Below are positions 15,104-52,701 of a DNA stretch of 64,000 bases, piece by piece. The stretch lies in NCBI RefSeq assembly GCF_009834535.1, contig NC_045696.1:33792001-33856000 (forward strand). The letters run 5' to 3'. Position numbers and translations under genes: made by a program. The stretch is from Camelus ferus. Lineage: Eukaryota. The notes beneath the pieces were generated by a model, which was given only the letters and a program-made list of their open reading frames with translations, was not told where the DNA came from and made no database searches. Numbering within the stretch: the stretch's first letter is position 1; each line of letters begins with the position of its first letter.

Positions 15104-15215
15104 GGGACTGGGGGGTATAGCTCAATGCTAGAGCACATGGTTGGCATGCATGCACAAGGTCCAGGGTTCAATCCCCACTGCCTCCATGAAGGGGGAGAAA
15201 GAAATTGAAACGAAG
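15104..15215 (+). mobile_element. tRNA-Ala-derived camelid SINE (Vic-1-like)
   Basis: A box tagctcaatgctagagc and B box ggttcaatccc; 14-bp TSD gatacattcattca at 15090-15103 and 15216-15229. Confidence 0.9.
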
Positions 15216-17609: not shown

Positions 17610-17746
17610 TTCTTTGTGGGTTTTTTTGTGGGGCGTAGGTAATTAGATTTATTTATTTATTATTTTTTAAATGAGGGTACAGGAGATTGAACCCAGGACC
17701 TTGCACATGCCAAGCACACACTTTATGACTGAGCTGTACCCTCCCC
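17610..17746 (-). mobile_element. tRNA-Ala-derived camelid SINE (Vic-1-like)
   Basis: gattgaacccaggacc...gactgagctgtaccctcccc preceded by the T-rich ggtaattagatttattt tail. Confidence 0.9.
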
Positions 17747-20630: not shown

Positions 20631-20790
20631 GGGGAGTGAGTATAGCTCAGTGGTAGAGCACATGCTTAGCACGCATGAGGTCCTGGGTTCAATCCCCAGT
20701 ACCTTCATAAAAATAAAATAAACTACATTAGATAAACCTAATTACCAATCTCCCCCTAAAAATAAATAAAAGTAAACAGAAGCAAGTAGG
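20631..20790 (+). mobile_element. tRNA-Ala-derived camelid SINE (Vic-1-like)
   Basis: ggggagtgagtatagctcagtggtagagcacatgcttagcacgcatgaggtcctgggttcaatccccagtacc plus A-rich aaacctaattacc tail. Confidence 0.92.
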
Positions 20791-27665: not shown

Positions 27666-27788
27666 TTATTTTTTGGTGGGGTGTCATTAGGTTTTTACTT
27701 ATTTTTTTTTCAGTGGAGGTACTGGGGATTGAACCCAGGACCTCATGCAAGCTAAGCATGTGCTGTACCACTGAGCTCTACACTCCCC
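27666..27788 (-). mobile_element. tRNA-Ala-derived camelid SINE (Vic-1-like)
   Basis: ggaggtactggggattgaacccaggacctcatgcaagctaagcatgtgctgtaccactgagct. Confidence 0.92.
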
Positions 27789-31169: not shown

Positions 31170-32210
31170 TCTAACGGATCTTCAGTGATTCACTTTGAGA
31201 AAAACTTCTTATTAACTTTCCACTTAGTTGGTTTCTTCTTCCTAGAAATTCTCTCTTAACTTGGCTTTGAGGACACTAAATCTTCCTGGATTTCCTCTTT
31301 TCTTTCTTTGGCCACTATTTCATAAATTTTCTGCTTCCCTTCTACTCAATGTTTAAATGTTGGAACTTCTCAGGACTCACTATCATACTCTCTTCTGTTC
31401 TCAACTGTAAATCCTTACTCCAGGTTAACCTGCAGCCTTCAGCATCATTTTAACATGGGAGGATGGTCGCAATCATCCATCCCACAAGCATTTTAATGGG
31501 AAGAGAATGTGATTGAACTAGGTGAAAGAAACAAGAGACTGAAAAATCCGTGATGCACCAGGTTGAAGAAACTTAAAGACCTAAATGTCCTCTCATGGCG
31601 AAGGCAGTAAGACTGTACCAAGTGAAATGGCTCAGATTCACCATTTTTATGACCAAGAGGACCAAAAATAACTGGATCCCAGAGAAGAAGTCAGAGGTTT
31701 AGAAAGATGAGGTGGAATGTGAGGGGAGAGGAGGAGATGGAGGGAGGCCATCTGTGCTCATGAACAGCTCATGGAAAGACTAATCTTCATTTGCTACATT
31801 TTCTGGTAATTGGTTCTACGTGTGCACCATCCCAGATGCTGAAAGCATAATGAACGAGTCACATCAGTGCCCAGTACTCCCAGTTATCTCAAGCCTAGAT
31901 TCTCCTTTGAGTTCTAGACTCTTATACTGAGTCATTACTTGGAGCTCCAGTGGTGCAATCAATTAGTGCTCAGTACTTATACTGAGTCATTACTCAATAT
32001 GTCCACGCTACCTCCCCCTATGTAATTATGAGAGAGAACATGTATGTGGTGATGTTTATCACACTGCTGCTCATGAAGAAGATTAAAAGTTAAAATTGAT
32101 GATTCAACATTCCTCATTCTCCTTATCAAATCTATTCATTCTCTTCCATCTTTGCCATCACTACCCTAGTCCAAGCCACCAAGATCTCTGGCCTGGATTA
32201 TTTCAATAGA
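31170..32210 (+). mobile_element. L2 fragments (interrupted; host of the tRNA-half insertion)
   Basis: cttggctttgaggacact...ttaaatgttggaacttctcagg; ccatcactaccctagtccaagccacc..ggcctggattatt. Confidence 0.65.
31944..31981 (+). pseudogene. Tailless retropseudogene of the 5' half (5' exon) of tRNA-Ile(TAT)
   Basis: gctccagtggtgcaatcaattagtgctcagtacttata matches GCTCCAGTGGCGCAATCGGTTAGCGCGCGGTACTTATA at 32/38, and most differences are CpG transitions. It is flanked by the perfect direct repeat cttatactgagtcattact (31921-31939, 31976-31994). No poly(A) tail. Confidence 0.88.
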
Positions 32211-52582: not shown

Positions 52583-52701
52583 TTTTTGGAGGAGGTACTG
52601 GGGATTAAACTCAGCACCTCACGCATGCTAAGCATGCGCTCTACCACTTGAGCTATACCCTCCCCCCATACATTCTTTTTCATGTTCTTTTTCATTATAG
52701 G
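52409..52701 (-). mobile_element. L1 3' tail containing a nested SINE
   Basis: aagtatagtcagtttacaatgttgtgtca...ttctttttcattatagg; TSD ttt(a/g)taactgactt at 52395 and 52702. Confidence 0.88.
52521..52666 (-). mobile_element. tRNA-Ala-derived camelid SINE with (TTTA)n tail, nested in an L1 3' end
   Basis: ggaggtactggggatt...gctaagcatgcgctctaccacttgagctataccctcccc; L1 3'UTR on both sides with catacat..cttttt duplicated. Confidence 0.92.

Follow-up and report, generated by a model that had tools for sequence, protein, structure and literature searches.

Tailless retropseudogenes of therian mammals were reportedly described by Schmitz et al. in 2004, and Hanada is said to have reported 5' leader-exon fragments of tRNA in CLP1-deficient cells in 2013. 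A survey of the human genome lists 2,402 "perfect" tailless retropseudogenes that are truncated at single-stranded regions (Noll 2015, PMC5322556). According to the criteria given there, such a copy is 5'-(almost) complete, has lost at least 10 nt at its 3' end at a loop or single strand, is at least 30 nt long, lacks oligo(A), and lies between duplicated sequences of 8–35 nt with at least 70% identity; its target is complementary to the terminal 2–18 nt of the RNA and follows the L1 consensus TT/WAAAAWW. The same source weighs truncated RNAs against internal priming and favors the latter, names "unprocessed tRNAs" among the nuclear templates, and allows tRNA sources 20 nt of 5' sequence "for potential precursor sequences" (Noll 2015, PMC5322556). 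In its main text, tRNA introns, leaders, and pre-tRNA are not discussed by those words.

We analyzed a copy of this kind in a 64,000-nt stretch of the Camelus ferus genome (the window). A preliminary description of the locus had claimed that a 38-nt match to the 5' part of tRNA-Ile(TAT) lies inside a perfect 19-bp direct repeat, that no poly(A) accompanies it, and that the last 6 nt of the tRNA piece are also the first 6 nt of the repeat, and all of this was borne out by our analysis (Table 1).

Table 1. Coordinates of the insertion and of tRNA-model matches elsewhere in the window
Feature	Position in window	Strand	Basis
5' copy of 19-nt target-site duplication (CTTATACTGAGTCATTACT)	31921-31939	+	100% identical to 31976-31994
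Four extra bases, tgga, most likely pre-tRNA 5' leader	31940-31943	+	Gene and family leaders
38-nt tRNA-Ile(TAT) 5' part, up to A37	31944-31981	+	32/38 identity to gene 5' exon
6-nt overlap CTTATA of tRNA end and duplication start; presumed primer-template pairing	31976-31981	+	
3' copy of 19-nt duplication, without preceding poly(A)	31976-31994	+	Repeat search, sequence
Rfam tRNA-model match	15111-15186	+	35-58 bits across the five matches
Rfam tRNA-model match	17672-17743	-	Within 35-58 bits
Rfam tRNA-model match	20636-20707	+	Within 35-58 bits
Rfam tRNA-model match	27714-27785	-	Within 35-58 bits
Rfam tRNA-model match	52590-52662	-	Within 35-58 bits

A 19-nt repeat is expected by chance only about 5e-7 times in 501 nt. 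The insert is 42 letters in size and consists of tgga followed by 38 nt that span the 5' strand of the acceptor stem, the D arm, the 5' strand of the anticodon stem, and the loop as far as A37, with TAT at the anticodon place. These 38 nt include the A box and nothing of the B box, the intron, or the 3' exon; a 19–20-nt intron and a 36-nt 3' exon are thus missing from the copy, and with an A box alone it is presumably not transcribed in the manner of a tRNA gene. There is no A-run after the tRNA piece, and the second copy of the duplication overlaps the tRNA end directly. ARAGORN made no tRNA call at 31921-31994, and Rfam returned four weak non-tRNA matches at E<=10 and no tRNA call at the gathering score. 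This silence is expected because only half a tRNA is present, and it is not evidence against the finding.

The copy has the same 5'-complete, loop-truncated, oligo(A)-less, duplication-flanked form as the class described by Noll 2015 (PMC5322556). It starts at G1 with four leader-like bases before it, keeps 38 nt and ends at A37 within a loop, and has a duplication of 19 nt at 100% identity; its terminal complementarity is the 6 nt CTTATA, and its identity as Ile(TAT) extends to the anticodon. Nothing of substance differs from the class as that source defines it, apart from the species being another one and the match to the target consensus being only loose. The copy fits as one more member of the published L1-made tailless retropseudogenes, in agreement with the preliminary description, which had called it a tailless L1-type retrocopy with a target-site duplication and microhomology.

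We searched the Camelus ferus genome (2.09 Gb, 2043 contigs) with a degenerate pattern, 26 letters long and drawn from the 5' part, and obtained 24 matches, compared with 0 for a reversed-pattern control. Among the loci found, L005–L009 are five intact genes; their 38-nt 5' exons are identical, and each has an intron of 19–20 nt and a 36-nt 3' exon. When introns were allowed, ARAGORN called tRNA-Ile(tat) in three of the five, and in two of these three it set a 20-nt intron between ..ttata and atgcc... The remaining two genes share this 5' exon, and their 3' exon is either a match or off by one T-arm base; for these two the program gave the intron a different placement. The window copy departs from the gene 5' exon at six positions, of which five affect the exon's five CpG dinucleotides, one in each, and one is a non-CpG G>A. 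A duplication that is still perfect, taken together with five CpGs that are all lost, suggests that the insertion is old but not ancient. On this sequence comparison, which was made with the genome's own Ile(TAT) genes, the assignment of the source to tRNA-Ile(TAT) stands.

In addition to the five genes, the genome contains at least 26 3'-truncated Ile(TAT) copies, the window copy included. Nineteen were found with the 5'-part pattern and seven more with a second pattern covering tRNA positions 9–38, which gave 30 genome matches and 0 control matches (the set comprises L003, L004, L010–L026, L047, L051, L053, L056, and L060–L062; L017 was matched only by the 5'-part pattern and not by the second). 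These copy counts are lower bounds, set by the search patterns. A 30-letter pattern of the 3' exon matched the five genes and one lone copy, and the Ile(TAT)-derived sequences of the genome, apart from the genes, thus appear to be almost all 3'-truncated. The lone copy (L032, G000:C2:77305268-77305297 plus ~6 nt upstream) is a whole 3' exon, 31/36 identical, that starts near A38; it has no 5' exon, intron, CCA, poly(A), or flanking duplication of at least 6 nt, and it mirrors the 5' copies. One of the 26 truncated copies, L011, sits inside a tRNA-Ala-like SINE-type element elsewhere in the genome.

Flanking duplications, which were found by automated search and then checked by eye, measure 7–20 nt in 24 of the 26 copies and only 5 nt in L014 and L061. 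The calls for these two, and in part those for L016 and L017, are unreliable; the copies are counted among the 26, and their duplications carry no weight in the argument. If the junction is expressed as the tRNA index at which the downstream duplication starts (index 39 being the first base after A37), it lies at 33–45 in 24/26 copies. Eight duplications start exactly after A37, at index 39. Indices 33 (the window copy and L051), 34, and 40 account for two copies each, index 41 for three, and indices 35, 36, 37, 38, 42, 43, 45, 55 (L014, unreliable), and 58 (L013) for one each. The target sites are mostly pyrimidine-rich and then A- or purine-rich (for example aatt/TAAAAC, tctt/GAAAAT, and cttt/ATAAAG), and as sequences they fit the L1 endonuclease and the TT/WAAAAWW consensus. 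At the window site the outer boundary reads gact/CTTATACT, a nick at ..CTT/ATACTG is possible inside the microhomology, and the match to TT/WAAAAWW is loose.

These features bear on an origin of the copy at the DNA level, as a decayed local tRNA gene that has lost its intron and 3' exon, as a DNA duplication, or as break-repair filler. We found nothing specific in favor of such an origin, which appears extremely improbable in view of the perfect 19-nt duplication that abuts both ends, the recurrence of the same architecture at 25 other unlinked places, the flanks, which are single-copy in the genome save for short old matches at ~32150-32210, and the absence downstream of any trace of the 3' exon. 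The decayed gene was rejected on these grounds. Chance resemblance was considered and likewise rejected. Searches of the genome with the flanks did not place the insert within a recognizable young repeat or segmental duplication.

That an insertion took place is read from the duplication. Of 23 sequencing runs found, 20 contain all sampled words of the stretch; these 20 are filed under two organism codes, with one run unlabelled. We looked for an empty allele in four of the 23 (X1, X3, X20, and X23) and found neither a read nor a contig in which the insert is bypassed. In X1, X3, and X20 the contigs include it with 0 differences over 601 nt, and the raw reads of X23 cover 15/29 bins at a depth of ~1.

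The preliminary description had suggested that the extra bases before G1 could be pre-tRNA leader and had proposed comparing 31940-31943 with the leaders of Ile-TAT loci. The comparison upholds the suggestion. The gene leaders end in ..gccgaa (L005), ..agcgga (L006), ..accgga (L007), ..aagcat (L008), and ..agtgtg (L009), and a single C>T change at a CpG would turn the cgga of L006 and L007 into the tgga of the window copy. Across the 25 copies that are 5'-complete, the triplet at -3 to -1 is GGA in 10, GAA in 8, GTA in 4, AGA in 2, and GGC in 1. The bases before G1 are therefore GGA or GAA, with which three of the five gene leaders end, in 18/25 copies (P ~3e-22); A occupies -1 in 24/25 and G occupies -3 in 23/25. 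In L015, the bases ccgaa equal the last five leader bases of L005. Polymerase III usually starts ~3–5 nt upstream of the tRNA, and from these sequences we infer that the templates began at such a start. Carrying leader-type bases from a start ~3–5 nt upstream, they would therefore not yet have been cut by RNase P.

GTA stands before G1 in L011, L017, L053, and L062 and is absent from all five present genes (L009 has gtg), which suggests that the GTA-leader copies may derive from an older or lost source gene. In L011 and L062, the GTA leader occurs together with an A after A37, as an intron of the L009 type (AGG..) would give. Leader type and intron-start type are not always concordant with the extant genes, as in L012 and L019, where GAA occurs with CAG.

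The leader also bears on whether the template could have been a mature, spliced tRNA-Ile(UAU), present either as a 5' half (e.g., produced by angiogenin) or as a whole molecule that was internally primed, with the four bases added without a template. An end within the anticodon loop would agree with this, and the next bases in L025, L051, and L062 are A or AT, in line with the mature tRNA; however, random addition would not give a match such as that of tgga to cgga or GGA/GAA in 18/25, and 20/26 copies have a pyrimidine directly after A37 (P 0.005), not the mature A38. A mature 5' end would lack a leader, whereas the window copy has four leader-matching bases. We regard a mature template as very unlikely, and a mature cytoplasmic half is disfavored because the leader is present. 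Stress-induced angiogenin 5' halves have the same length and the same anticodon-loop end as the window copy, but they lack a leader, and what follows A37 in the family resembles intron and not the mature tRNA.

The preliminary description had the copy end exactly at the intron 5' splice point and derived it from a free 5' exon or 5' half that stopped there. Such a template is not supported as stated: in the window copy the 6-nt microhomology covers the junction and hides the last RNA-derived base. In the window copy CTTATA is followed by C, which is common to the target and amounts to a one-in-four coincidence, and nothing shows any intron sequence there. The window copy by itself cannot decide between a cut exon and internal priming.

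Other members of the family run past A37, two of them clearly and 4–6 more probably. In L013 the exon is followed by a 19-nt intron and then by the initial 3'-exon bases ATGCC, which overlap its own duplication (ATGCCTAC), and L010 contains TGGC(AG), 4–6 bases that equal the start of an L007-type intron. Intron-like bases, 1–6 in number, that are absent from the upstream target copy were found in L015 (TA), L016 (CAA..), L056 (C), and L061 (TGA), and the bases that follow A37 in L011 (AC) and L062 (A) fit mature tRNA and an L009-type intron equally. Several of these "intron" bases are single letters and open to mimicry by one later mutation (L056). The introns of the five genes start TAG, CAG, TGG, CAG, and AGG, with Y-A in three of the five. 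All eight duplications that start right after A37 begin with Y-A (CAG in 3, CAA in 2, and CAC, TAG, and TAA in 1 each), and over the whole family the first pair after A37 is Y-A in 14/26 copies (P 5e-6). In the predicted folds of two leader-bearing precursors, UAUA/CAGC and UAUA/UGGC (the slash marking the end of the exon) lie within an 8-nt loop; the fold z-scores, -0.6 and -1.7, are not significant. Taken as sequences, these bases suggest that many family templates still held part of the intron, a result in favor of internal priming in the nucleus with unprocessed precursors as templates.

We consider it most probable, at about 0.6, that the window copy arose by internal L1 priming on an unspliced, leader-bearing pre-tRNA-Ile(UAU). 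A possible but clearly less probable explanation retains the same enzyme and anatomy and takes as template an already cut 5' leader-exon fragment of pre-tRNA-Ile(UAU), generated when the tRNA splicing endonuclease cleaves before RNase P removes the leader, so that the ..CUUAUA end pairs with the target. The tRNA part of the window copy ends at A37 at the latest, and the leader is present; tgga fits the leader-exon form and not an end-matured 5' exon. The sharp mode of the junctions at A37 (8/26, with 8 more overlapping the exon end) is also expected from a pre-cut 5' exon, and at least 16/26 copies have their junction at or before A37. However, L010, L013, and the probable copies hold post-A37 bases that are absent from the target, which argues that a cut is not required, and the free 5' exon or half of the preliminary description is correspondingly weakened and unneeded. 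A 2',3'-cyclic phosphate end is not known to be a feature of L1 templates, and this also counts against a cut fragment. The eight duplications that start after A37 begin with Y-A, as introns do, and not with A, as canonical L1 duplications do (Noll 2015, PMC5322556); human copies of other intron-bearing tRNAs end at many intron positions in the table of the same paper, which reports that truncated 5S rRNA and U2 RNAs were sought and none found.

Leader-exon fragments are nevertheless a described RNA species: in CLP1 mutant cells, as reported in PMC4052509, they have the same composition of leader plus 5' exon as the window copy. They are RNAs, whereas the window copy is a DNA fossil whose intron-bearing sisters show that cutting was not needed. 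We found no publication that links splicing intermediates to L1 templates, judging from search listings. It is doubtful that cleaved 5' leader-exon fragments of pre-tRNA-Ile(UAU) gave rise to all 26 copies. If they did, cleavage of leader-bearing precursors by the germline splicing endonuclease would go back tens of millions of years, and such cut ends would be usable by L1.

Internal priming on the unspliced precursor would proceed as follows. The template would be an unprocessed tRNA-Ile(UAU) precursor with a 3–4-nt 5' leader, most likely unspliced. The nick of the L1 endonuclease would fall in the bottom strand, at or inside ..ACTCTT/ATAC.. (31921-31926), and the freed DNA end would pair with the A/U-rich anticodon loop, CUUAUA(C), through 6–7 nt of microhomology. 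From there ORF2p would copy the RNA past G1 and along the leader to its 5' terminus, and a second nick 16–19 nt downstream would give rise to the 19-nt duplication. The product would be a tailless retropseudogene, dead on arrival, in which all five CpGs have since been lost. The anatomy, the source genes, the 26-copy family, and the identity of the leader are shown by the sequences, and the participation of L1, the position of the nick, and internal priming in place of a pre-cut RNA are inferred.

The human catalog offers for comparison insertions that occurred independently in a different lineage. In its Table S2, Noll 2015 has 667 "trna" strings, among them IleTAT 51, ArgTCT 32, IleAAT 23, TyrGTA 16, LeuCAA 7, and LysTTT 3. 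IleTAT is over-represented in that table, on which the main text makes no comment, and four distinct IleTAT source names occur among the 30 rows listed, out of 506 tRNA genes used (Noll 2015). Among these 30 of the 51 IleTAT rows, 25 span 37–43 nt and 13 exactly 40 (end minus start). Compared by coordinates alone, they share with the window copy the source tRNA and the size class and have apparently ~2 more matching bases. The rows for ArgTCT (11/32), TyrGTA (11/16), and LeuCAA (7/7) are spread over 36–87 nt (Noll 2015 Table S2). The cause of the IleTAT excess may be an A/U-rich loop that lies beside a purine-rich intron start. As for the other three tRNAs, we take the 36–87-nt spread, on the 5' exon lengths that we assume for them, to reach well into the introns, and it fits unspliced templates.

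The tRNA-derived SINEs are likewise tRNA-related sequences spread by LINE machinery. They have both promoter boxes and a tail that the LINE recognizes, and their master copies amplify, whereas the window copy keeps the A box alone, lacks a tail, and can have no offspring. The five mutually similar tRNA-model matches elsewhere in the window (Table 1) look less like genes than like head sequences from a family of tRNA-derived SINEs; ARAGORN calls tRNA-Ala(agc) for two of them.

Two sites in the 38-nt exon are changed more often than the others. At G9, 7/26 copies are changed (5 G>T, 1 G>C, 1 G>A); at U36, the third base of the anticodon, 8/26 are (6 T>C). Neither site is part of a CpG, and the remaining sites show a mean of ~2.25 changes per site. 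The six transversions at G9 have P ~2.5e-5, or 7e-4 when corrected for 28 sites. U34 shows no excess (1/26 changed), and the window copy has neither the G9 nor the U36 change. The copies with T9 and C36 do not come from one source gene, because their leader types differ. m1G9 causes misincorporation by reverse transcriptase, according to the report in PMC8062790. The two hotspots could be frozen reverse-transcriptase misreadings of m1G9 and of a modified U36, or, alternatively, they could be lost gene variants. Judging from search listings, we found no publication that makes the link between modification signatures and tRNA retrocopies. If the misreading explanation is true, the copies would constitute a genomic record of ancient tRNA modification.

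The window copy alone matters little, as it is an inert ~40-nt tRNA fossil of a class that has been catalogued by the thousand in human. The family adds modestly to this, in that its templates appear to have carried the first bases of the primary transcript, with a leader ending in GGA, GAA, or GTA. If orthologous empty sites are scored, the tailless copies would be usable as clade markers.
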